NCBI RefSeq assembly: GCF_050749885.1
Contig: NZ_JBOIUB010000011.1
Location: 22,118-62,117, forward strand
Source of the DNA: Zooshikella sp. RANM57
GTDB taxonomy: Bacteria > Pseudomonadota > Gammaproteobacteria > Pseudomonadales > Zooshikellaceae
Reading direction: 5' to 3'
Length of the DNA: 40,000 bases
Part shown: positions 5,394 to 23,030 of the stretch, piece by piece
How the letters are laid out: each line of letters starts with the position of its first letter
How positions within the stretch are numbered: position 1 is the first letter of the stretch
Made by a program: the position numbers and the translations under genes
The notes under the pieces: generated by a model
Databases searched by the model: none
Seen by the model: only the letters and a program-made list of their open reading frames with translations
Told to the model about the DNA's origin: nothing

Positions 5394-5409
5394 GTTCTAA
5401 CAACGTTTA

Positions 5410-5450
5410 TAAGGGCACCTCTAAAATGCTTTTTTTTAGAAGTGCCCTTA
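5410..5450. repeat. palindromic repeat element copy A (TAAGGGCACCTCTAAAA-TGCTTTT-TTTTAGAAGTGCCCTTA)
   Basis: 16-bp arms with 1 mismatch, 17 nt after the ridA stop. It may double as a terminator. It belongs to the same family as copies at 13419, 15855, 20866 and 22678. Confidence 0.7.
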
Positions 5451-5813
5451 AATTTATTTATTTTATATACCTACTAAAACACCTTTACTACCTGTATAAC
5501 AACTACGTATTTTCTACTTATATTTTTGTTTATCATTCATACGTAAATCATAGCATATTCACTCATACACCCAATAAATCCAGGTTAACTCTTATAATCG
5601 CATGAATTCGACTATCATTAACTTTAGACTTTAGTATAATACCCATCTATTCAGCTATTGTATTATAATAAAAACCATGATTCTCATTAAACCCTGAAAA
5701 TGCTGCAATGTAAGTATTACACACACTTTTAAACGTATTTATTTGTATAAATTATATCCATTACTTTTATAAATAGTGTACTTACAATCTTCGCATGTCA
5801 TTTTAAGCTAACC

Positions 5814-6572
5814 TTGCTGGGGCCTGTTAACACTATTCGTGATATGAACAAGATACTTGAACAAGCAGAGAAACTTAAACAAATTAAGTCAATAGAAGCA
5901 CTAACACTGCATTGCAATGAAATTATGGATAGCCTGGATATTGATTATTATATCTTTCGCTATTACCCGCCATTACAATTGACAGAAGATGACATGCTTT
6001 CTTTTGGCAACTATCCAGAACAATGGATTGACTATTACGATATTAATGAATTGGTTAAAATTGATCCAATCCATCTTCATTGTAAAAGCCACAGTACTCC
6101 TATATTTTGGCAAGAAGCTAAGAAAATTAAGCAATTCAATGCAAGTGAACACCGCCAAGTTATGACGTTAGCAGAAAGCGCTGGCCTTAAAGATGGTATA
6201 ACAATACCTGTTCATGGCCTGCGCAGAGGGGTTGCTTTTCTAAGTACTGCTTTTCATAGAACGATATCCATTGAGAAGGAAATTCGCAATATCGCTAATA
6301 TTCAATGGATTACACCATTTATCTATGAAGCCGTTAATCGGATAGAATTAAGTAATTCACAAAATAAAACGGTGCTTTCAAAGCGAGAAAAAGAATGCCT
6401 AGCGTGGGCCAGTAGTGGTAAAACATCATGGGAGATCTCTCAAATATTAGGGGTTTCTGAAAGAACCGTTAACTTTCATTTAACAAATGCAACACAAAAA
6501 ACCAATTCATCGAATAGAATACAAGCAATAGCACGCTCAATTATCCACGGAATTATTGAACCAATGTACTAA
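5814..6572 (+). CDS. luxR: LuxR-family AHL-responsive transcriptional regulator
   Basis: The autoinducer-binding domain hallmarks are present (W..Y......DP...........W: EQWIDYYDINELVKIDP...IFW). The C-terminal GerE HTH is present (LSKREKECLAWASSGKTSWEISQILGVSERTVNFHL). The track start is TTG; the ATG at 5844 is an alternative. Confidence 0.9.
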   Translation: MLGPVNTIRDMNKILEQAEKLKQIKSIEALTLHCNEIMDSLDIDYYIFRYYPPLQLTEDDMLSFGNYPEQWIDYYDINELVKIDPIHLHCKSHSTPIFWQEAKKIKQFNASEHRQVMTLAESAGLKDGITIPVHGLRRGVAFLSTAFHRTISIEKEIRNIANIQWITPFIYEAVNRIELSNSQNKTVLSKREKECLAWASSGKTSWEISQILGVSERTVNFHLTNATQKTNSSNRIQAIARSIIHGIIEPMY

Positions 6573-6801
6573 TTTCAGTATATCTAATACACACATCATT
6601 CAACGGCTACATTAAATATCTCTTAAGTATTTTACTTGCTCATTGCTGGCCGTTTGTCACTCAGATCTTCATCACCTATATCAATACCTGTCAAGCTCGC
6701 AGTATCAGCGAGTCAACGCTTTGTTATTCATTTTTGTCTGACAAAACCGATATCACAAGTAACAGTAACCTGGCTTTATCCTCACAAAATTTTTTTCCAA
6801 A

Positions 6802-6821
6802 ACCTGTCATTTTAGCTAGTT
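6802..6821 (+). promoter_or_regulatory. candidate lux-box-like site ACCTGTCATTTTAGCTAGTT upstream of the dioxygenase operon
   Basis: The left half, ACCTGT, equals the V. fischeri lux-box half-site. The pattern is CTG-N10-TAG. The centre lies ~44 nt upstream of the TSS predicted from TATAAT at 6843-6848. The 8-mer ACCTGTCA also occurs at 6686-6693. Dyad symmetry is weak. Confidence 0.3.
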
Positions 6822-6896
6822 ATGTAGCTCCGTATCTCTCCCTATAATTTAAACCACAAAATCACCATCCTAATAAAGAAACACGGTATAACAATA

Positions 6897-7814
6897 ATGA
6901 GTACTTTACTTGAAAATAATAAGTTATCTTCGCTCTTTGATTACTTTGGAACGACTATTTTTAGCCACAATAACGAAGATATAAACCAGCTCCCTTACCA
7001 ATTGCTCATAAAGTCATTGGCAACATCCGGCGTCGTCTTACTTCGGAATTTTGACGTCAATGTGCATACTTTTAGTACATTTATAGAAAATAATTCTGAT
7101 TACGTCACTTTCGACCCTGCTCGAAAACCCACGACAAAAAGTACAGCAGAGATACAAGCAGGTGATGTAGAAATGGGTTTACATATGGAAAATGGAAACC
7201 TTCCATTCTCCCCAGAACTTCAGTGGTTTTATTGTGGGAAGGCTGCCAAAGAAGGTTCAGAAACTACATTCTGTGACGGTTTGACGGTATGGCAAAAACT
7301 ATCACCCATGACCCAGAAGAAATTTTTAAATAAAAAAGTTAAATACTCGCGCGATATTCCTTGGGAAAATGTCAAACGTTATTTATCACTTGAGTTACAA
7401 CAGCCTGTAGATAGAATTACTGACGAGCACCTTGAATATGTTAATGCAATTATTCCTGGCCAAACCTACACGCGTATAAATGATGAATCAATTCATTCTG
7501 AATATGTTGTTTCAGCCGTAATTGATAATGTATTTAATACTGGCCCTTGTTTTTGTAATTCACTAATGAGTCCTAGTGTGAATTATCGGCCTCCTAAAAT
7601 GACCTGGGAAGATGATACTGAAATCTCTGAGTTTGTATGGACTGAGATTAAAGATATTTGCGAAGAATATACACGTGATCATAAATGGCAAGATAATGAT
7701 GTTATTATCGTTGATAACACACGGGTTATGCATGGTCGCAGGAAAGTACTAGATCCTTTACGCAAAATGTTTGGTGCACAAAGCTACCTGGTGGGAGGTA
7801 ACAATGTTAAGTAA
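6897..7814 (+). CDS. TauD/TfdA-family Fe(II)/2-oxoglutarate-dependent dioxygenase
   Basis: 305 aa with the facial triad H-x-E (GLHMENG) and a distal His in DNTRVMHGRR. The overall layout is typical of the clavaminate-synthase-like/TauD family. Confidence 0.75.
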   Translation: MSTLLENNKLSSLFDYFGTTIFSHNNEDINQLPYQLLIKSLATSGVVLLRNFDVNVHTFSTFIENNSDYVTFDPARKPTTKSTAEIQAGDVEMGLHMENGNLPFSPELQWFYCGKAAKEGSETTFCDGLTVWQKLSPMTQKKFLNKKVKYSRDIPWENVKRYLSLELQQPVDRITDEHLEYVNAIIPGQTYTRINDESIHSEYVVSAVIDNVFNTGPCFCNSLMSPSVNYRPPKMTWEDDTEISEFVWTEIKDICEEYTRDHKWQDNDVIIVDNTRVMHGRRKVLDPLRKMFGAQSYLVGGNNVK

Positions 7815-9294
7815 ACGTATTCTGAAGTATTTAAATGAAACACCCGATCGTGTTTTCGCAAAAGACATTAATGGCACTGAATATACGCTTGATCAATTAC
7901 GGAATGATATCAATCTAGTAAAAAATAATTTGGCCGCGCATAATTTATCATTAAACGGCAAAATTGTGGGTATCGCCATGCGCTCAAGCTATGAATGGAT
8001 CGTAACACATTTTGCGACCATGGAGCTTGGTACTATTTTACTGCCTGTTCCCCTAGAATTTGCTGATGAGCAAATTGCCAGTTTAATGACCAAGGCCACC
8101 GCTGTTTTTGTGGCCGATGAACAGCAACATAAGCGAATTAACGCGATATTACCTGATAAACTGTGTATTAATGCAAAAGGTGAGCCTTTAAATAAAAATA
8201 AATTAGGTGATATGGTTGAGATACCTGCGGGATTACTTTCGATTATTCATACATCAGGTACGACGTCTAAACCCAAAGGGGTCATGATTCGAGATGAAGC
8301 ATTGAATATTCTTGTTAATAGTTTATTCAAGCGTGTGCCTGCTCAGCCACTGCATTATCTTTCAATTGTGCCAATGAGTCTTTTAATTGAACAAGTATTG
8401 GGTATTTACTTACCATTACTGTCTGGAGGCACCATTACTTTTATGCCAAAAGCCATGACTGAATATGGCGCAGGTATAGGAGAGCCAATTGATTACCTCA
8501 ATTTAATAAAACAGGCTACACCAAACTTTATTTATTTACCGCCTAAGTTACTTGAGGAAACGAATAGGGTTTTAGAAGAAAGTGCTGATAAAACAACTTT
8601 ATTCGGGTCAGCTATCGACTTTGACAAACTACATATTATCACTGGAGGTGCAAAAATAAGCCCAGAAATCATTCAGTCTCTCGATAATCATAATATTAAC
8701 GTTTTTGAAGCCTATGGATTAAGTGAAAACAGTTCAGTCATATCAATTAACGGCCCTAATGAGCGAAAAATTGGTTCCGTTGGAAAGCTATTAGATGGCA
8801 TTGTACCAAAGTTTGTTGATGGTGAACTGCTTGTCAAAACACCTACACTCTGTGCTGGTTACTACAACGCTGATGACACAGCTTGCGATTTATCTGATGG
8901 TTATCTCCATACAGGTGATATTGCTGAAATACGGGATGGTTATCTCTATATTACTGGGCGTAAAAAACATGTAATTATTTTGTCTAACTCACGGAATTTA
9001 TCACCTGAGTGGGTTGAGTCCATTTACAAACAAAGCTTACTTATTGATGATATGATTGTTATCGGAGAAGCCCAAGCCTATCCAACAGCCATTATTTTAT
9101 CAAAAGCAGATAAACATGCTATTCATAATGAATTGCATAAGTATCATGATCAAATAGCTAAATTCGCTCAAATCAATCACTTTGAGCTTATAAATGACGT
9201 TGATGCATTTAGAGGCCAATATTATACCGTCTCAGGTAAGCCAAAACGTAGCGAAATTGATCAATCATTCTCAACCAGTTTATACAGGAATTAG
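7804..9294 (+). CDS. AMP-dependent synthetase/ligase (acyl-CoA ligase-like adenylating enzyme)
   Basis: Adenylation core motifs are present: IIHTSGTTSKPKGV, YGLSE, HTGDIAE, GRKK and SGKPKR. The start is set at ATG 7804, which has a GGGAGG RBS and overlaps the dioxygenase stop by 11 nt. The track start at 7771 has no RBS. Confidence 0.9.
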   Translation: MLSKRILKYLNETPDRVFAKDINGTEYTLDQLRNDINLVKNNLAAHNLSLNGKIVGIAMRSSYEWIVTHFATMELGTILLPVPLEFADEQIASLMTKATAVFVADEQQHKRINAILPDKLCINAKGEPLNKNKLGDMVEIPAGLLSIIHTSGTTSKPKGVMIRDEALNILVNSLFKRVPAQPLHYLSIVPMSLLIEQVLGIYLPLLSGGTITFMPKAMTEYGAGIGEPIDYLNLIKQATPNFIYLPPKLLEETNRVLEESADKTTLFGSAIDFDKLHIITGGAKISPEIIQSLDNHNINVFEAYGLSENSSVISINGPNERKIGSVGKLLDGIVPKFVDGELLVKTPTLCAGYYNADDTACDLSDGYLHTGDIAEIRDGYLYITGRKKHVIILSNSRNLSPEWVESIYKQSLLIDDMIVIGEAQAYPTAIILSKADKHAIHNELHKYHDQIAKFAQINHFELINDVDAFRGQYYTVSGKPKRSEIDQSFSTSLYRN

Positions 9295-9296
9295 TC

Positions 9297-16316: not shown

Positions 16317-17918
16317 ATGAAGATTTATCGCTTAAATAAACCAGTTAGACCAGACGCACCTTCTGCACAACATCAAATGCAAAAAGCTAAGCAAGTGTCA
16401 ATTAGACAACGTTTTATACCTCAAGCATTGCTCACATTAAGTATTATCAGTGCCAGTACTGTAATGTGCACCCTGAATGCTCAAGCAGATTCAACCCAAA
16501 CCAAGCAGCTTGAATACTTTCCTATACAACAGTTGATCTATTCACCAGATGAAATGGATCAGTTCAACTTAGCAATCTATCTAGCACAACATGCCCCTCA
16601 TCTTAGCCAATATGCCGAGGTGATCTCCCATTGGAGTGGATATACCAGTATAAGTCCAAAAGTCCTACTGGCTTTAATGGAGCAACAATCAGGCATTATC
16701 TCCAACCCATCCCCTTCAGCTGAAGACCTACAATCCCCCTTTGGCAAACTTTCAGTGAAAATAGGCTTTGAGTTACAGGTTGAAATTATTGCGAAGCGAC
16801 TCGCCAAGCTGCATTATCACCCAAAAGATTCATCCACAAATTTAAATACTCAAGCAGCAGAGACTTTACAGCTTAACCAAGCCCAAACAGTCAATCAATT
16901 ATTTACGACTGGTGTTGCGAATGGAGAATTAACTGCTACAAATAACGCATCAAATTTAAAACACTTTATTTCAACCTACAATCAATTGTTTCCAAACGAG
17001 CTTGGCAACAATCAGTTAGCATTGACTGCACAAAGTTACGAGCAAACGCCCCCAGACACTATGCTTCAATTGCCATTTCCTGTGGGTGAATACTGGCACA
17101 TAGGTGGTGCTCATACGAACACTGGCAGTGGTGATCGTCCTCTATCATCACTGGATTTTAATAATGGAGGATACTGGGGAAGTGATACGTCGAATCAATG
17201 GGTCTCAGCCGCCGCATCAGGGGTAGCTAAAGTTCACTCGTCCTGCTCACTTGAAATAACGCATAATAATGGTTGGTCAACTCATTATTATCATTTATCC
17301 AATATTCAAGTACAGACAGGTGATAAAGTCTCAATTAATCAGCCTATTGCTAATTATGCCGGCAATCAGTCACAAGCACTTTGTAATGGAGGACACTCTA
17401 CAGGCCCTCATCAACACTTTAGTTTGAAATTACAAGGCCGTTATGTGCACCTCAATGATGTATCCCTCTCTGGTTATAAAATCCATACTGGGCGTAGCAG
17501 TTATGACAGTAATTGTAGCTTCTTTTGGCTGACAAAAGATGGTGATAAACACTGCTCAGGTCGTATTTATAACCCTGGAGTTAATAGCAACAATGATCCT
17601 GGAGGAGAAACACCTTTACCACCAAGTTCACCTCAACCCCCTACCGATCCACAACCTCCAACTAGTCCAGACTGGCCTCAGTTACCATTACCACCAAACA
17701 ACACAGGTCCAGACTTACGTGGGCTACCGGGTATGATTTGTAATATTGTGGCAACCTCAATTTGTGCAGGCACTAGTCCAGCAATAACGGCTCCACAAAA
17801 CAACCTATTTCCTGCATCAGAGCAGGAGCGGGAACAACAGCAACTCACGAACCCGAATATAGATTTTTGTCAGCTTGCAAAGTCTCTTTGTAGTATTATT
17901 GACAGCCAGTTTCCTTGA
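16317..17918 (+). CDS. secreted M23A peptidase, LasA (staphylolysin)-like, with extra Pro-rich linker and Cys-containing C-terminal tail
   Basis: The catalytic region aligns closely to P. aeruginosa LasA as I recall it (GGAHTNTGSG, GWSTHYYHLS, LCNGGHSTGPHQHFSL, YNPG). An AGGTGA RBS precedes the start. An alternative start at ATG 16377 would give a classical signal peptide. Confidence 0.88.
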   Translation: MKIYRLNKPVRPDAPSAQHQMQKAKQVSIRQRFIPQALLTLSIISASTVMCTLNAQADSTQTKQLEYFPIQQLIYSPDEMDQFNLAIYLAQHAPHLSQYAEVISHWSGYTSISPKVLLALMEQQSGIISNPSPSAEDLQSPFGKLSVKIGFELQVEIIAKRLAKLHYHPKDSSTNLNTQAAETLQLNQAQTVNQLFTTGVANGELTATNNASNLKHFISTYNQLFPNELGNNQLALTAQSYEQTPPDTMLQLPFPVGEYWHIGGAHTNTGSGDRPLSSLDFNNGGYWGSDTSNQWVSAAASGVAKVHSSCSLEITHNNGWSTHYYHLSNIQVQTGDKVSINQPIANYAGNQSQALCNGGHSTGPHQHFSLKLQGRYVHLNDVSLSGYKIHTGRSSYDSNCSFFWLTKDGDKHCSGRIYNPGVNSNNDPGGETPLPPSSPQPPTDPQPPTSPDWPQLPLPPNNTGPDLRGLPGMICNIVATSICAGTSPAITAPQNNLFPASEQEREQQQLTNPNIDFCQLAKSLCSIIDSQFP

Positions 17919-17950
17919 TATTCTCAAAGGTATGGCAACCACTGAAAAAG

Positions 17951-17978
17951 AAACTGCCGCAAATGCGGCAGTTTTTTC
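17951..17978. terminator. bidirectional rho-independent terminator AAACTGCCGC-AAAT-GCGGCAGTTTTTT
   Basis: A perfect 8-10-bp stem flanked by an A-run and a T-run. It lies between the convergent M23 gene (stop 17918) and the ceramidase gene (stop 18001). Confidence 0.85.
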
Positions 17979-18000
17979 TTTGATAGATCAGATACTCCGT

Positions 18001-19998
18001 TCATTTAAGTCCAACATAAAATGTTTTACTGACGCCACTGTATGGTTTTACTTTACCTGTAATGGGTTGCCGAAAAGCACCTACATGTCGAATACGGTAA
18101 AGCCCATCTGTTGTATTATCAGGTATTTGCCAGCGAATGATGACATTGGATGATCCCCAAATAGGATCAACCCGGCGCCACTGTAAACTTGTGCTCCAAT
18201 CATTGTCTGTGGCAACGGTCTTCCACTGACCTTGATAAAATTGTTCAACATACAGATAGCTTTTACCTATCCTTAGATCATTACGTAAATGTCCAGACCA
18301 AAATGTGACAACCACTTCATCACCTGTCTTATATTCACTTTGCGCATCACGCTCTACCATACCAATTTGTTTACTTAATGGTGCTTGATCATGGATAACA
18401 GGTAGATCAAAACTCATCTGATGCTTGCTTAAATCACGAGGCTTAGGCTCCTGCTTATAAGCATTCTGTAATTTATTTATATCATGTAAACTTTGTGCTA
18501 ATTCACTCACCGCTTGTCGATAAGCAGCTAATGTCCAAGGACCAAAATGAGTCGATCCTCCTTCATAATGTTGTGCATTATATTCTTCAAATGTTGTGAT
18601 ATAACCTGAATACGCATTACTGTATCCTGCCATTACAGTTACCCTTGCGTCAGGGTAATACTTTGTTAATGTTTGCAGAATCCTACGACCAGCCATCACG
18701 GTAAATTCCCCAGGTAAAGCCACCACAACAAACTGTCCCAATTGAATTAAGCTTATGGGAAGTATTTCCGGACTCCATGGAAATGGCTTTGCATTACCTT
18801 GTGCTAATAAAATAGGTTTAGGTGCATGACAGGTCTTTTGTTGCGCTGTTGGTTGAGTTAACAACCCAGTAATGATCTGCCAAAAAGGATTTTCTTGTAA
18901 TTGACCTTCATGAAAAAAATCCAAACCCCGCCCATCCTCAGTACCAGCCGCAAATGCATACCCCAATGCTGCAGTACAGGTCTTCTCCATTTTTCCTGAG
19001 GTAAATTCTCTCCGTACACTCTGCTTACTCATATCAATATATAAGTGACGATATTGCAGGTTACCATTAATTTTTTGGCCTGATTGTAATACAAGATCAC
19101 GTGCTTTTTTAAATTGTAACTCACCAATGCGTTTTGTACTTTTCTCAGCTGTGTTTCCAGGTCCTGAGCCATCTAAGTTAATATTTGGTGTCATATCACC
19201 TGCATTTGATTGAGCAAAAGCCGAGACAATATTTATGCCCCATACGTCTTTGGCGTACTTTTCAAATAAATAGGCTGCATAACCTTTATTATCAGGATTT
19301 ATAAGCTTATTTTCTTTTGGCATAGACACACCATGTGTTGGAAACCAACTTAACACCCCAACCAGTTGCCCTTTTTGTTTAAAACTAAGCACAACCATTC
19401 TTGTATCTTCTGCCGGGTAGTCTCCTGCATCCTTGTTCTGTAAGTAAGCCTGTAAAGAACGGTTACGATTAGCACCGTCTAAATGCCCCTGATTTGTAAA
19501 TATTTCACCCGGCTGAAGATTTTGATGTGCTTCAAAAATAGCATTGACAATGCCTTTAACAATTACGTCAAAATTTTGTTTAATAAACCCTTTTGTCGTA
19601 ATGTTATACAATGCATAGTGTGAAAAACCTCCGGGGCCTGAATGAGTATGAGTAGCACTAATAACTACATTACGGTGATTATAATAACCTGGTAATACTT
19701 TATTTAAACGAGCAATTACTGCTTGCTTAACGGCCTGAAAAGCCATTCCAGTATCAATAACAACGTAAACCACTCTATCTTTGGTAATTTGATCTTTTAT
19801 AATGAATACTCGAGCCCACAGTCGACTTTTAATTCCCTCTGCCACTTGATTTAAGTCAGCATATCCCATAAATAATACTTCAGCCGCAGGTCCCGTAATA
19901 TCAGCCTTACCGATACCAATATCAAACCTTGCGTAAAGTGATAAAGAAAACATATAAAGAAAAATCAATAGTCCCATATTTATAATTTTTATTTTCAT
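18001..19998 (-). CDS. secreted neutral/alkaline ceramidase
   Basis: 665 aa with a signal peptide. The N-terminal block GYADLNQVAEGIKSRLWARVFII and the HTHSGPGG motif are typical of the bacterial neutral ceramidase family. The size matches the P. aeruginosa enzyme. Confidence 0.85.
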   Translation of the reverse strand: MKIKIINMGLLIFLYMFSLSLYARFDIGIGKADITGPAAEVLFMGYADLNQVAEGIKSRLWARVFIIKDQITKDRVVYVVIDTGMAFQAVKQAVIARLNKVLPGYYNHRNVVISATHTHSGPGGFSHYALYNITTKGFIKQNFDVIVKGIVNAIFEAHQNLQPGEIFTNQGHLDGANRNRSLQAYLQNKDAGDYPAEDTRMVVLSFKQKGQLVGVLSWFPTHGVSMPKENKLINPDNKGYAAYLFEKYAKDVWGINIVSAFAQSNAGDMTPNINLDGSGPGNTAEKSTKRIGELQFKKARDLVLQSGQKINGNLQYRHLYIDMSKQSVRREFTSGKMEKTCTAALGYAFAAGTEDGRGLDFFHEGQLQENPFWQIITGLLTQPTAQQKTCHAPKPILLAQGNAKPFPWSPEILPISLIQLGQFVVVALPGEFTVMAGRRILQTLTKYYPDARVTVMAGYSNAYSGYITTFEEYNAQHYEGGSTHFGPWTLAAYRQAVSELAQSLHDINKLQNAYKQEPKPRDLSKHQMSFDLPVIHDQAPLSKQIGMVERDAQSEYKTGDEVVVTFWSGHLRNDLRIGKSYLYVEQFYQGQWKTVATDNDWSTSLQWRRVDPIWGSSNVIIRWQIPDNTTDGLYRIRHVGAFRQPITGKVKPYSGVSKTFYVGLK

Positions 19999-20865
19999 TT
20001 TATTTTGTCTATCCTTGGCAAACTTGTTATTATTTTATCAGTGGTGCTAAATATTCCCTATGAACAGGGCATATATGAACCGTCATATAAACTACACCCT
20101 TTCGTTAACATACTGCTTTTCAGTCATAGCAAAATTATTTGCCAACACGTATCAACTTGTATCGACATATAATAATTGCGACAACCACTTTGTTACACCT
20201 AATGATTAAATATAGACAATGAAGCAAGTAATAAAAAAATATAAACTATTTGTAACAAATCTTATTTATCAACACTACAATCAGTAGCATTCATCATTTT
20301 AGGTTTTACACAGTAAAACCCTCTGGTTTTATTGATTACCAGCATAAGTATAAAAAGTCATTTTCAAGCATAAAAGTCAAAAAATAAACTTATATTCTCG
20401 CCAATTACATTTTTTTACTTTGTTACAATTAACCAAAAGATAAAGTCTATGCTAATCAGTTAGCGTACTTCTTTATACTCAATAAAGGTCTATCTAAATT
20501 AATACCCATTCTAAATGCTGCAAATTAGCGCACCCTGCACCAACAAATTGCTCTTTTTTTAATAGGCGTTCTCTTACAAAAAAATATCCTATTGTTTTTA
20601 AACGTTTTTTTGCTAAATATATATGGCAAGACTTATGCATTTTATAATTTTGTATTGCCATACAAAGCAAAAATATAATATATTTTTAGTGTGGGATAAA
20701 AAAACAAACAAAAAGCTAGCAGTGAGCCAGAAGTAAAGGTATACACATTTTGTATTCGCTATGTAGAACATATAGGATGTATCGGGTGTATACAGATTAC
20801 TAGCATAACAAAAGTGCTAATATGCAAAAACTTTTGTTTATATCAGTAGCTTACGCAGTAATAAA

Positions 20866-20900
20866 TAAGGGTGCCTATAAGTATTTTCAGGTGAAACAGC
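20866..20900. repeat. degenerate or solo copy D of the repeat family (TAAGGGTGCCTATAAGTATTTTCAGGTGAAACAGC)
   Basis: It shares the TAAGGG..CCT.TAA start and the TTTTCAG(G)TG segment with the copy at 22678. It lies ~110 nt upstream of the first S8 protease ATG. Confidence 0.45.
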
Positions 20901-21009
20901 ACGTACAAATTGTATGTTTATCACCTCTTACTCAATCGCCAAAATAACCCACGCTACAACTTAAATAACAATTATTTTTAGTAAGAATCCTTAAACAGGG
21001 AGTGTATCT

Positions 21010-22455
21010 ATGCCATCGTCGAGACTGTTAAGTCTTTTTTCTGCAGCCACCATAGCTTTAAGCCTGACTAACACTTATGCTGCAACTAACATTTCAAGCA
21101 CTCAAAAAACTGACCGTATAATCATAAAGTTTAAAAAGAATGAATCTGCCTCTTCCAGCAGCAGTAATAATTCGAGTAGTACTCACGCGCAAATGCTAAG
21201 AATGGGTTTTAAACCGCTTCATAAAACTGTTTCTGGTGCACAGGTTTATAACTTGGGAGAACTTATTGATGTATCCAAAGTAAACGAGTTTACGGAGCAA
21301 CTTGCTAATACGACAAGTGACGTTGAGTATGCAGAACCTGACTACATAATGACCGCATTAAATACTCCAGATGATCCAATGTACAATCAGCAGTGGGCTT
21401 ATTTTGACACTAAAGGTGGTATAAATGCTGAAGAAGCATGGGATATGACAACGGGTAAAATGCCTTCTGGTGAGTCAGTTGTTGTCGCCGTTATCGATAC
21501 AGGTGTTCGCCCTCATGGAGACTTAAAAGAAAATCTACTACAAGGCTATGATTTCATTTCTGATGCCTGGGCTGCAAACGATGATAATGGACGTGACAGC
21601 AATGCATATGATACTGGCGATGCCATTAAAGCAGGAGAGTGTGGCACTGATGGTAATGGTAACCCCTATCCATCTTATGATCAAAGCAGTTCATGGCACG
21701 GAACGCATGTTGCTGGAACAATAGCCGCTGTTGGTAATAACTCATTTGGCGTTTCCGGTGTTGCCTGGAATGCAAAGGTACTTCCAGTTCGGGTATTAGG
21801 AAAATGTGGTGGTTATACCTCTGATATTACCGATGGCATGATGTGGGCAGCAGGTATTGATGTTGATGACGTCCCTCGCAACACGCATCCTGCTCAAGTC
21901 ATTAATTTAAGTCTTGGCGGTTACTCTAAGTGCAGTAGAACATATCAAAATGCAATCAGCGCCATACGCGCTAGAGGAACAACTATTGTTGTCGCCGCAG
22001 GAAACAGCGATGATAACGCTAGAGACTACACCCCTGCTAGCTGTGATGGAGTTGTTACTGTAGCGGCTACTAACAAAAAAGGATTCCGTGCCAATTACTC
22101 CAATTACGGCTCAGTAGTAGACGTTGCTGCTCCAGGTGGTGAAACCTCATGGATGTCAAAAACAGGTGGCATTTTATCGACATTAAATGCTGGCGACTCT
22201 GAACCAGGTGAAGATAACTATGATTATTATCAAGGCACCAGCATGGCTGCACCTCATGTAGCAGGCACGGCTGCACTGTTATATGCAATTAATCCTGATT
22301 TATCGCCTAGTGCAGTAGAGCGAATTCTGAAATCAACTGCACGTGAATTTCCAGGATGCTATACACGTGGTTGTAACAATATTTGTACAGAAGACACTTG
22401 TGGTACAGGTATCATTGATGCAGGTGAAGCTGTAAAGAAAGCAAAATACTATTAA
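21010..22455 (+). CDS. secreted S8 subtilisin-family serine protease (paralog 1) with N-terminal propeptide
   Basis: A signal peptide is present. The catalytic triad blocks are VAVIDTGV (Asp), HGTHVAGTIAA (His) and GTSMAAPHVAG (Ser). The IIKFK segment is an I9-like propeptide. Confidence 0.92.
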   Translation: MPSSRLLSLFSAATIALSLTNTYAATNISSTQKTDRIIIKFKKNESASSSSSNNSSSTHAQMLRMGFKPLHKTVSGAQVYNLGELIDVSKVNEFTEQLANTTSDVEYAEPDYIMTALNTPDDPMYNQQWAYFDTKGGINAEEAWDMTTGKMPSGESVVVAVIDTGVRPHGDLKENLLQGYDFISDAWAANDDNGRDSNAYDTGDAIKAGECGTDGNGNPYPSYDQSSSWHGTHVAGTIAAVGNNSFGVSGVAWNAKVLPVRVLGKCGGYTSDITDGMMWAAGIDVDDVPRNTHPAQVINLSLGGYSKCSRTYQNAISAIRARGTTIVVAAGNSDDNARDYTPASCDGVVTVAATNKKGFRANYSNYGSVVDVAAPGGETSWMSKTGGILSTLNAGDSEPGEDNYDYYQGTSMAAPHVAGTAALLYAINPDLSPSAVERILKSTAREFPGCYTRGCNNICTEDTCGTGIIDAGEAVKKAKYY

Positions 22456-22465
22456 TGTATAAATC

Positions 22466-22487
22466 GGAGGCTTTATCAAAAGCCTCC
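22466..22487 (+). terminator. hairpin GGAGGCTT-TATCAA-AAGCCTCC after S8 paralog 1
   Basis: A perfect 8-bp stem 11 nt after the stop codon. The T-tail is weak (AATATT). Confidence 0.5.
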
Positions 22488-22677
22488 AATATTAACAGCG
22501 ATTCCATGCTTCAGATAATTTAGCCGTGTAAATAGAATAGTTTTTATACCTACAACTCATAGTGTCATCATACTGTACTAATAATGCACCCTTATAACAG
22601 GGTTTCACTATGAAGTTAAACTACTCATATTTCGTTAAAGTTTGACATATATGTATTTCTGACAAACATTTAATACA

Positions 22678-22824
22678 TAAGGGCTCCTCTAAAAATGCAC
22701 TTTTTCAGTGGAAGCTGTGTCAGCGCTATACTCGGATCCTCATGTATTTCTTATACACTGCGATCCTCCGTGCAGTGCTTCCTTGCTCTCACAAAAAAAA
22801 TCACTATTTTTAGAAGTACCCATA
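22678..22824. repeat. long (MITE-like, ~147 bp) copy C of the repeat family: ends TAAGGGCTCCTCTAAAAA ... TTTTTAGAAGTACCCATA
   Basis: The terminal inverted repeats match the arms of copies A and B but are separated by ~110 bp of internal sequence. A further right-end fragment (ATGCACCCTTA) lies at 22584-22594. Confidence 0.55.
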
Positions 22825-23030
22825 ATGCAAAAAAATGTATTATGCATACCTTTTTCAGTAAAAGCATCGTTACCAGAACATATTGAAACTAACGATTCTA
22901 CGTATTATGCAGTAACAGCCAAAATCAAACTCAGCATGTATTAATAATAAAAATGGACTCTCACACTAACGAGTCTAAATTCATTTATTTGGATTAAGAG
23001 TAAGGAAAACTCGGCTAGTTTTTGTGGGTA

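Follow-up and report, generated by a model that had tools for sequence, protein, structure and literature searches.

The spacers upstream of luxR and of several secreted-hydrolase genes of Zooshikella sp. RANM57 share a palindromic repeat, which raises the question of what this repeat is and whether it regulates the genes that it precedes. A sequence-only reading of the locus had offered two answers, namely a REP/MITE-type selfish element accumulating in long AT-rich spacers, or a shared operator (or domesticated repeat) co-regulating a QS/exoenzyme regulon. Here, the stretch of 40,000 nucleotides containing these genes (the window) was analysed together with the 6.2-Mb Zooshikella genome (G000) and related genomes. 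The repeats are very probably copies of a non-autonomous DNA transposon, or MITE: the element is small and non-coding, it has terminal inverted repeats and a target duplication of fixed length, and its dispersed copies differ in presence or absence between genomes.

The repeat family in the window

The existence of a family above the level of chance was borne out at both scales, as the 17-nt arm with up to three mismatches was matched eight times in the window (0.15 expected from shuffles), while the 15-nt core with up to two mismatches was found 123 times genome-wide, compared with 19 times in a genome simulated by an order-3 Markov model. A window-only profile search at maximum sensitivity returned A, B and C as the only significant copies (Table 1). 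These three had been described at 5410-5450, 15855-15896 and 22678-22824, respectively, and they are present as described, except that the flanking TAA/TTA letters, which had been counted into the palindrome, really belong to a 4-bp direct duplication of the target. Copy A has the ridA stop codon 19 nt away on one side and the luxR start 366 nt away on the other. Copy B lies in the divergent spacer between the M50 (minus strand) and M23 (plus strand) peptidase genes, and copy C in the spacer of two S8 protease genes, 225 nt past the S8-1 stop and 297 nt ahead of the S8-2 start. The gene names assigned beforehand were found to be correct with Pfam.

Table 1. Positions of the repeat copies, their left target-site duplications and two weaker candidates in the window
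Feature	Position	Strand	Details
Copy A, short hairpin form, 35 bp	5413..5447	.	Short-form HMM E = 3.5e-12 in the window
Copy A, left target-site duplication ATAA	5409..5412	.	Partner TTAA at 5448-5451, 3/4 positions identical
Copy B, short hairpin form, 36 bp	15858..15893	.	HMM E = 2.9e-13
Copy B, left target-site duplication TTAA	15854..15857	.	Partner TTAT at 15894-15897, 3/4 positions identical
Copy C, long form, 141 bp, structured central hairpin	22681..22821	+	Long-form HMM E = 3e-49
Copy C, left target-site duplication ATAA	22677..22680	.	Partner ATAA at 22822-22825
E, possible relic solo arm	13418..13433	+	3 mismatches to the 17-nt arm; profile E = 0.1
D, not supported as a copy	20866..20900	.	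Absent from both HMM lists even at E <= 200

The remaining candidates fared less well. Sequence E, proposed as a copy at 13419-13433, is a marginal solo arm, possibly a relic, located 65 nt upstream of the chitinase start; its partner arm was not found. Candidate D is at chance level, as are the smaller fragments reported at 22584-22594 (where 22578-22594 scores E = 69), 16268-16285 and 11361-11395, the last two being unlisted even at E <= 200. The statement that the family marks essentially every secreted-hydrolase gene was thus too broad, because only A, B and C are significant in the window profile search: the ridA/luxR, M50/M23 and S8/S8 spacers hold copies, whereas the same search finds none at the ceramidase/S8-1 spacer or before luxI, and the copy claimed before the chitinase gene is a relic arm at most.

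The element proper carries GGGCACCTCTAAAAA at one end and TTTTTAGAGGTGCCC at the other. Its two main size classes are a short hairpin form of 35-36 bp and a long form of about 140 bp, and a form of about 205 bp also occurs; none of these contains an ORF, and every paired copy has terminal inverted repeats with outer arms of 15-19 nt. In the short form, the two ends are joined around a 5-6-nt loop to give a 35-36-bp hairpin, the RNA of copy A folding at -21.4 kcal/mol (z = -5.5). This form has target duplications of its own and symmetric changes in its arms; it is best explained as the product of an internal deletion between A/T runs of the long form, after which it may have been mobile in its own right.

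Folding of the two strands of copy C gave -39.9 and -54.2 kcal/mol. The middle of the long form is a conserved hairpin of about 60 nt which covaries across taxa, with compensatory changes across several bacterial families and two T.G wobble pairs that vary little or not at all. Such covariation indicates some structural constraint beyond the binding of a protein at the element ends. No Rfam family was matched at the gathering score, and the element searched alone gave only a chance-level match (E = 3.1).

Target duplications, empty sites and genomic placement

Of 28 pairs of 4-bp flanks, 15 are perfect direct repeats and a further 10 agree at three of four positions, the consensus being TTAA; among them are the non-palindromic flanks TCAA, ATAA, AAAA, TTTT and TTAT. 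Target-site duplications of TA or TAA had been proposed as a feature to look for; duplications are indeed present, but they are 4 bp long with a TTAA consensus.

A sister species (G002) lacks all three copies: its sites orthologous to those of A, B and C are unoccupied, and its syntenic 40 kb, in which the same genes follow in the same order, contains no copy. Copy C is absent exactly, together with one copy of its 4-bp target, both in this species, which has a single ATAA, and in G001, which has a diverged ATAT; at the site of copy B, G002 has a single TGAT. Moreover, three species share a conserved block shortly ahead of S8-2, and copy C splits this block. A, B and C were inserted in this lineage once it had separated from the sister species.

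Across the genome, 63 loci were recovered on 14 contigs (nhmmer E <= 0.01), comprising 13 long, 9 long-partial and 19 short copies and 22 arms. Intergenic DNA receives copies approximately according to its length, and positions shortly behind stop codons are modestly over-represented. Tandem, convergent and divergent spacers hold 36, 11 and 16 loci, against 35.5, 8.1 and 19.4 expected per intergenic base (p = 0.44), and the median host spacer measures 436 bp, compared with a base-weighted median of 411 bp. For 16 loci, a gene 3' end is no more than 30 nt away (10.2 expected, P = 0.009), and no excess was seen at gene 5' ends. The long form shows no bias in orientation relative to flanking genes, with 9 of 16 co-oriented in the Zooshikella genome, and no significant one in other taxa (18 co-oriented vs 13 anti-oriented). 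The position of A, B and C near luxR and hydrolase genes is explained by the long AT-rich spacers of those genes.

The long form is also found in the same genus, in the sister genus and in several other families of marine Gammaproteobacteria, and many of the copies in other taxa abut stop codons, while the 36-bp short form seems restricted to the Zooshikella family. Taxa with recent expansions include a Marinagarivorans bin and Porticoccaceae. In some metagenome bins, the element breaks assemblies. A plasmid collection gave no match. The literature search returned no description of the arm sequence or of a Zooshikella MITE, and the element is apparently an undescribed MITE family with a TTAA-like 4-bp target.

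Alternative explanations and mobilisation

According to the operator reading, a regulator binds the palindrome and thereby co-regulates luxR and the secreted hydrolases. Three copies do lie within 17.4 kb in spacers preceding luxR, M23/M50 and S8-2, and the window holds 3 loci where 0.45 are expected (nominal P = 0.011); clustering as strong as this arises somewhere in the genome in 14% of simulations. We consider a shared operator very improbable, given that the sister species retains the genes and their order with no copy at the sites of A, B and C, and that the 63 dispersed loci fit random insertion per intergenic base. The refutation test set beforehand for this reading goes against it, as the genome-wide scatter lacks any bias towards promoter-bearing spacers, signal-peptide proteins or paralogues of the window hydrolases. 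Promoter-bearing divergent spacers have no excess, and 11 loci lie in convergent spacers, which have no promoter. Loci are not enriched upstream of signal-peptide-like proteins (19/67 vs 26% expected, p = 0.39) or of hydrolase paralogues, a copy preceding one of six S8, none of three GH19 and one of three M23 genes. Within the window, the ceramidase/S8-1 and luxI spacers are empty, the copies stand at varying distances from the start codons that follow (366, 423/226 and 297 nt), and a stop codon precedes copy A by 19 nt. A likeness to the lux box, which is a 20-bp dyad, was considered and rejected, since both the length and the half-site spacing differ from those of a 35-36-bp hairpin with 15-nt arms. 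With no support for a common repeat-borne operator, any co-regulation of the QS locus and the exoenzymes would have to involve other sites, lux-box-like ones for example.

Equally remote is a REP/REPIN-type palindrome spread by a RAYT (Y1) transposase, although the short form is an intergenic hairpin of suitable size, often near gene 3' ends, and the genome holds one intact Y1_Tnp gene (C5:336624-336980). Single-strand insertion by Y1/HUH enzymes is not expected to leave target duplications and exact empty sites, both of which are present here; furthermore, the long form has classic terminal inverted repeats, and no repeat arm occurs within 2.5 kb of either Y1_Tnp match. Of the selfish element first envisaged, the MITE part therefore stands on inverted repeats, target duplications, empty sites and random placement, and the REP part does not.

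A further proposal adds to the MITE reading instead of replacing it: single copies may have been co-opted, copy A as a terminator or 3'-stabiliser of tnaA-tnaB-ridA and copy C as a structured S8-2 mRNA leader. The stable fold of copy A, 19 nt behind the ridA stop, is followed by a U-rich stretch, loci are enriched near 3' ends here and often abut stop codons elsewhere, copy C sits within the conserved block ahead of S8-2, and the central hairpin of the long form covaries. Nevertheless, co-option seems unlikely, as a consensus terminator scan reports none at A, B or C, the long form is not oriented with respect to genes, and proximity to stop codons could be explained by preference for a TTAA/TAA-rich target alone. 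Intrinsic terminators have a G+C-rich stem with a T run directly behind it; copy A, with its stable stem and loosely U-rich tail, may exert a weak terminator effect. Side effects on neighbouring genes are conceivable, for example termination or stabilisation of a transcript by the hairpin of copy A behind ridA.

Insertion of the MITE duplicates 4 bp of an AT-rich target with the consensus TTAA, which suggests that a DDE-type transposase, presumably supplied in trans, cuts the target in a staggered way. Ends of the IS5 group begin with GG. Both the TTAA-type duplication of 4 bp and the GG at the ends of the element lead us to infer mobilisation by an IS5-group-like enzyme; a TTAA direct repeat is also produced by ISKpn26, an IS5-like element (PMC10569121).

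The Zooshikella genome, 78 fetched loci and two complete sister-genus genomes (G003 and G005) yielded no autonomous element with the same ends, which lowers the certainty on the mechanism and not on the MITE class. Many accepted bacterial MITE families likewise have no known parent. No transposase gene occurs within or beside any copy, and none of the 9 PF01609 and 2 Y1_Tnp matches in the genome has a matching arm within 2.5 kb. Repeats of at least 500 bp identified by genome self-BLAST all have ends unrelated to the element, arm pairs 0.6-4 kb apart include none with matching 4-bp flanks, and all-against-all BLAST of the 78 fetched loci yielded only MITE variants of 262-270 bp. Two candidates were discarded. 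An arm-like repeated word in G005, CGGTACCTCTAAAAA, belongs to the coding sequence of an IS4-like element of 1.27 kb, the ends of which start with TCACTGCTGTCCCA, and it represents chance similarity; a composite unit stretching from arm E as far as B's right arm, enclosing the chitinase and M50 genes, has differing flanks (TTTA vs TTAT).

The long form might also be more than a pair of passive transposase-binding ends. The maintenance of its hairpin by compensatory changes and T.G pairs suggests that selection acts on a single-stranded module, either RNA or ssDNA, an idea that we put forward tentatively and hold to be rather doubtful. If true, the module could serve as a hairpin in some unusual step of transposition, or it could be an RNA element, spread by transposition, that acts on flanking transcripts, and the 36-bp derivative would be among the smallest self-contained mobile hairpins known. 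In practical terms, the MITE family is useful as an annotation item, strain markers could be drawn from the presence or absence of its copies in close species, and single insertions, such as those after ridA and in the conserved block ahead of S8-2, provide natural experiments on how neighbouring genes are expressed.

Comparison with known repeat systems

The 4-bp TTAA-type direct repeat is shared with the IS5 group (IS5 and ISKpn26; PMC10569121 for the latter), whereas the IS5-like element of 1003 bp present in the Zooshikella genome has ends unrelated to those of the MITE. To REP/REPIN sequences, the family is similar in the 35-36-bp intergenic hairpin of its short form, often just after genes, and it is set apart by target duplications, a long form with inverted repeats and the lack of a link to a Y1 transposase. 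ERIC/IRU sequences of Enterobacteriaceae and Vibrionaceae are likewise imperfect intergenic palindromes of about 130-140 bp which cross families and keep their hairpin by compensatory changes; however, the element has no match (blastn E <= 0.01) among 5,426 complete, ERIC-carrying E. coli genomes, and the Zooshikella family shows clear 4-bp duplications and empty sites.

A further parallel is with the Correia elements (CREE/NEMIS) of Neisseria. These are non-coding intergenic sequences of 100-160 bp with terminal inverted repeats and target duplications, they exist in full-length and internally deleted classes, their transcripts fold into a long hairpin, and they lack a transposase. Their target duplication is TA and they are known only from Neisseria, whereas the Zooshikella family has a 4-bp TTAA-like duplication, other ends and a minimal hairpin of 36 bp, and extends over several families of marine Gammaproteobacteria.

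Anatomy of the repeat family

The palindromic copies A, B and C lie exactly where the sequence-only reading had placed them, and their inverted arms were recovered by a repeat finder (I4, I6). The family to which they belong is real, and its abundance goes far beyond what shuffling or simulation yields: matches to the 17-nt arm (at most 3 mismatches) numbered 8 in the window against 0.15 expected from dinucleotide shuffles, and the 15-nt core GGGCACCTCTAAAAA (at most 2 mismatches) occurred 123 times across the genome under study (G000, Zooshikella sp. RANM57; 6.21 Mb, 97 contigs, 40.2% G+C; the window occupies C11:22118-62117) versus 19 times in an order-3 Markov simulated genome. Profile HMMs trained on 7 long and 16 short copies, and searched against the window only at maximum sensitivity, matched copies A, B and C alone at significance. 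The genes of the window had been identified correctly (tnaA, Trp permease, RidA, LuxR, LuxI, GH19 chitinase, M50, M23, neutral ceramidase and two S8 subtilases), but the accompanying claim that essentially all hydrolase genes are preceded by a copy did not hold, the window containing three copies and one marginal relic arm.

Coordinates of element copies, proposed matches and associated features (G001, G002, other genomes of the genus, G002 being the sister species; G003, G005, sister-genus genomes; C, contigs; L, fetched loci)
Feature	Position	Length	Context or result
Copy A	window 5413..5447		ridA/luxR spacer
Copy B	window 15858..15893		M50/M23 spacer
Copy C	window 22681..22821		S8-1/S8-2 spacer
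Proposed match D	window 20866-20900		no HMM match in window at E <= 200
Proposed match E	window 13419-13433		HMM E = 0.1 (window-only search)
Proposed fragment	window 22578-22594		HMM E = 69 (window-only search)
Proposed fragment	window 16268-16285		no HMM match in window at E <= 200
Proposed fragment	window 11361-11395		no HMM match in window at E <= 200
Left flank of copy C	window 22630-22680		near-identical in G000, G002 and G001
Right flank of copy C	window 22822-22870		near-identical in G000 and G002
Copy A site compared	window 5394-5470; L011 (G002:C201:3838-4016)		ridA/luxR spacer
Second local cluster	G000 C5:7031-15451		three element loci or fragments within 9 kb
205-bp subfamily	G000 C4:83406-83613; C1:602307-602510; C5:15247-15451		also on several G002 contigs
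Variant-arm pairs (examples)	G003:C1 1150852-1150895; 2253067-2253330; 2377398-2377534	44; 264; 137 bp	arm GGGCACCTCTAATAA
IS4-like element	L111:3217-4490 and L112 (G005:C1, about 397816-399089)	1.27 kb	382-aa open frame

In G000, nhmmer (E <= 0.01) detected 63 loci in total, comprising a long form of ~140 bp (13 full copies with ~90% identity to one another, copy C included), a short form of 35-37 bp (19 copies, among them A and B), variants of ~205 bp with a central insert of ~60 bp, deletion derivatives of 45-88 bp, and 22 solo arms or fragments. The extra bases of the 205-bp subfamily, found in both Zooshikella species, fall between model positions 57 and 61.

The element proper starts with GGG and ends with CCC; the TAA/TTA outside these ends, previously counted in the palindrome, belongs to the host. 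The target-site duplications that had been proposed as a check are present and 4 bp long: among 28 paired copies of G000, the four bases flanking each end form a perfect direct repeat in 15 and agree at 3 of 4 positions in 10, with the consensus T-T-A-A. Since 7 or 8 of the perfect flanks are non-palindromic (TCAA twice, ATAA three times, AAAA, TTTT, TTAT), they are direct and not inverted repeats.

The short form consists of the left end through the loop word TGCAC, joined to the right end; in a few short copies and in the sister genus, that loop word gives way to the right-end word (TCACTA or TTACTA). Because both junctions lie inside A5/T5 runs, a slippage deletion between these runs would be its simplest origin. 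The two arms of short copies have changed symmetrically far beyond the expectation of independent mutation (7 pair-keeping double changes versus 0.58). For the long form, a 45-sequence MAFFT alignment, drawn from taxa matched by a right-half pattern and biased by that pattern, gave a consensus hairpin of 26 pairs with 97.3% of cells paired, against only 30-51% in slid controls. Changes on both sides were seen at 11 pairs, one of these showed three pair types (AU 19, CG 15, GC 9; cell counts which overstate independent events, many rows coming from one bin), and two T.G wobble pairs were invariant or nearly so. The observed covariation was reached by none of 500 shuffles and, despite row redundancy and collection bias, several pairs have changed in more than one lineage.

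Empty sites and surroundings of the copies

Gene order in G002 is the same as in the window, with 75-90% identity. HMM searches recovered no element copies from the syntenic 40 kb of G002 or 20 kb of G001, the sole hit being a 16-nt arm-like match elsewhere. Where G000 has copy C, two alignment pieces of G002 abut with a 5-base overlap, skipping query positions 782-921. Base-level alignment shows that the element and one 4-bp target copy are missing in both relatives: the two ATAA words flanking 141 bp in G000 correspond to a single ATAA in G002 and a diverged ATAT in G001. G002 lacks copy B too, with a single TGAT where G000 has TTAA and TTAT around 36 bp. Copy A is also missing there, and ~130 bp of unrelated sequence occupies its place; this spacer has therefore been remodelled beyond simple insertion.

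Copy A, 19 nt after ridA, folds into a stable hairpin (-21.4 kcal/mol, z = -5.5) and has a tail loosely rich in U; a consensus terminator scan did not flag it. Copy C lies within a block just upstream of S8-2 which is nearly identical in three species and is split by the element in G000 only. Its flanks, conserved much more than the rest of the spacer and containing TTGACA-like words, probably represent a conserved promoter or regulatory block of this second S8 protease, and copy C, because it sits inside the block, may have altered the S8-2 leader or promoter.

Genomic placement and the nature of the element

Crude ORF calls of at least 80 aa (5,137 genes, 83% coding) reproduced the window's genes and placed 58 of the 63 loci fully in intergenic DNA. 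The two ends of another contig, C21 (50,791 bp), share an identical 127 bp, which marks it as a putative circular replicon of about 50.7 kb (plasmid or phage) with a k-mer overlap left by assembly.

A shared operator linking quorum sensing and exoenzymes had been offered beside a selfish element. The window does hold 3 loci against 0.45 expected (nominal P = 0.011), but as many triplets within 20 kb, or more, arose in 14% of simulations in which 63 loci were dropped randomly into intergenic DNA; the second local cluster is comparable to that of the window. Tandem, convergent and divergent spacers host 36, 11 and 16 loci, versus 35.5, 8.1 and 19.4 expected per intergenic base (p = 0.44), and the median length of host spacers is 436 bp, the base-weighted median being 411 bp. 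By a crude predictor, signal-peptide-like products are encoded by 19 of 67 genes with a copy on their 5' side, compared with 26% expected after weighting by intergenic length (p = 0.39), and by 20 of 57 with a copy on their 3' side. Among paralogues in G000, an upstream copy is present for 1/6 S8, 0/3 GH19 and 1/3 M23 genes. Position within spacers gave only one signal, a modest excess close to gene 3' ends (16 loci within 30 nt versus 10.2 expected, P = 0.009), with none at 5' ends. Long copies lie in either orientation to their neighbouring genes without preference, both in tandem spacers of G000 (9/16 co-oriented) and in fetched loci of other taxa (18 co- and 13 anti-oriented).

One ground named for dropping the regulatory reading was that copies scattered through the genome lack bias toward these gene classes, and the spacer-class, signal-peptide and paralogue results reveal no such bias, so that a repeat-borne operator is not supported. 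A REP/RAYT identity is contradicted by the target duplications and by the absence of RAYT association. By structure and behaviour, the element is a MITE.

Distribution, mobilisation and known relatives

Matches to the long form number dozens in each of the two other genomes of the genus; it also occurs in 3/3 sister-genus genomes and, at 80-87% identity, in 4 of 35 further families sampled in the order. In a species-level genome collection, 78 stretches match exactly a 25-nt pattern taken from the right half of this form; they come from Zooshikella harenae, a Marinagarivorans bin, Porticoccaceae, Cellvibrionaceae, Candidatus Reddybacter and other marine gammaproteobacterial bins. In other taxa, a stop codon directly adjoins about 20 of 55 copies, which fits a TTAA/TAA-rich target in G+C-richer genomes. 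By exact core pattern, the short form was found only in the Zooshikella family (8 in G000; 1, 3, 1, 0 and 2 in five relatives). In G003:C1 the variant arm is far commoner than the AAAAA arm; the lengths of its paired copies (44, 137 and 264 bp) suggest a sister MITE lineage sharing these outer ends.

Mobilisation in trans by a DDE transposase, through cut-and-paste or copy-in, is suggested by the terminal inverted repeats, the 4-bp duplication of constant length and the exactness of the empty sites. Ends of the IS5 group start with GG. The GG-starting ends of the element and its 4-bp duplications, like the TTAA of ISKpn26, make this group our best guess for the partner transposase. ISKpn26, an IS5-group element, has the 4-bp duplication TTAA (PMC10569121). 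A search for the partner around PF01609 and Y1_Tnp genes of G000, among all its long repeats, from arms paired at IS-scale distances and in the fetched loci found none. A lead in G005 turned out to be a chance similarity within the coding region of an IS4-like element; this element, whose ends begin TCACTGCTGTCCCA, is unrelated to the MITE. This insertion sequence looks recently active, because the fetched occurrences (7/9 of those of an internal marker word) are 99.8-100% identical. The best place to search for the partner is the Marinagarivorans bin (DATBNJ01 contigs, L031-L106), where the long element lies on more than 45 contigs, often exactly at the contig end, in what looks like a large recent expansion fragmenting the assembly; variants of 262-270 bp also occur there.

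The element was found neither in Rfam nor in a plasmid collection, and literature searches with its sequence and with the genus name brought up no description. Having no match in 5,426 E. coli genomes, it is not ERIC in sequence, but in structure and behaviour it resembles the Correia and ERIC-type elements.
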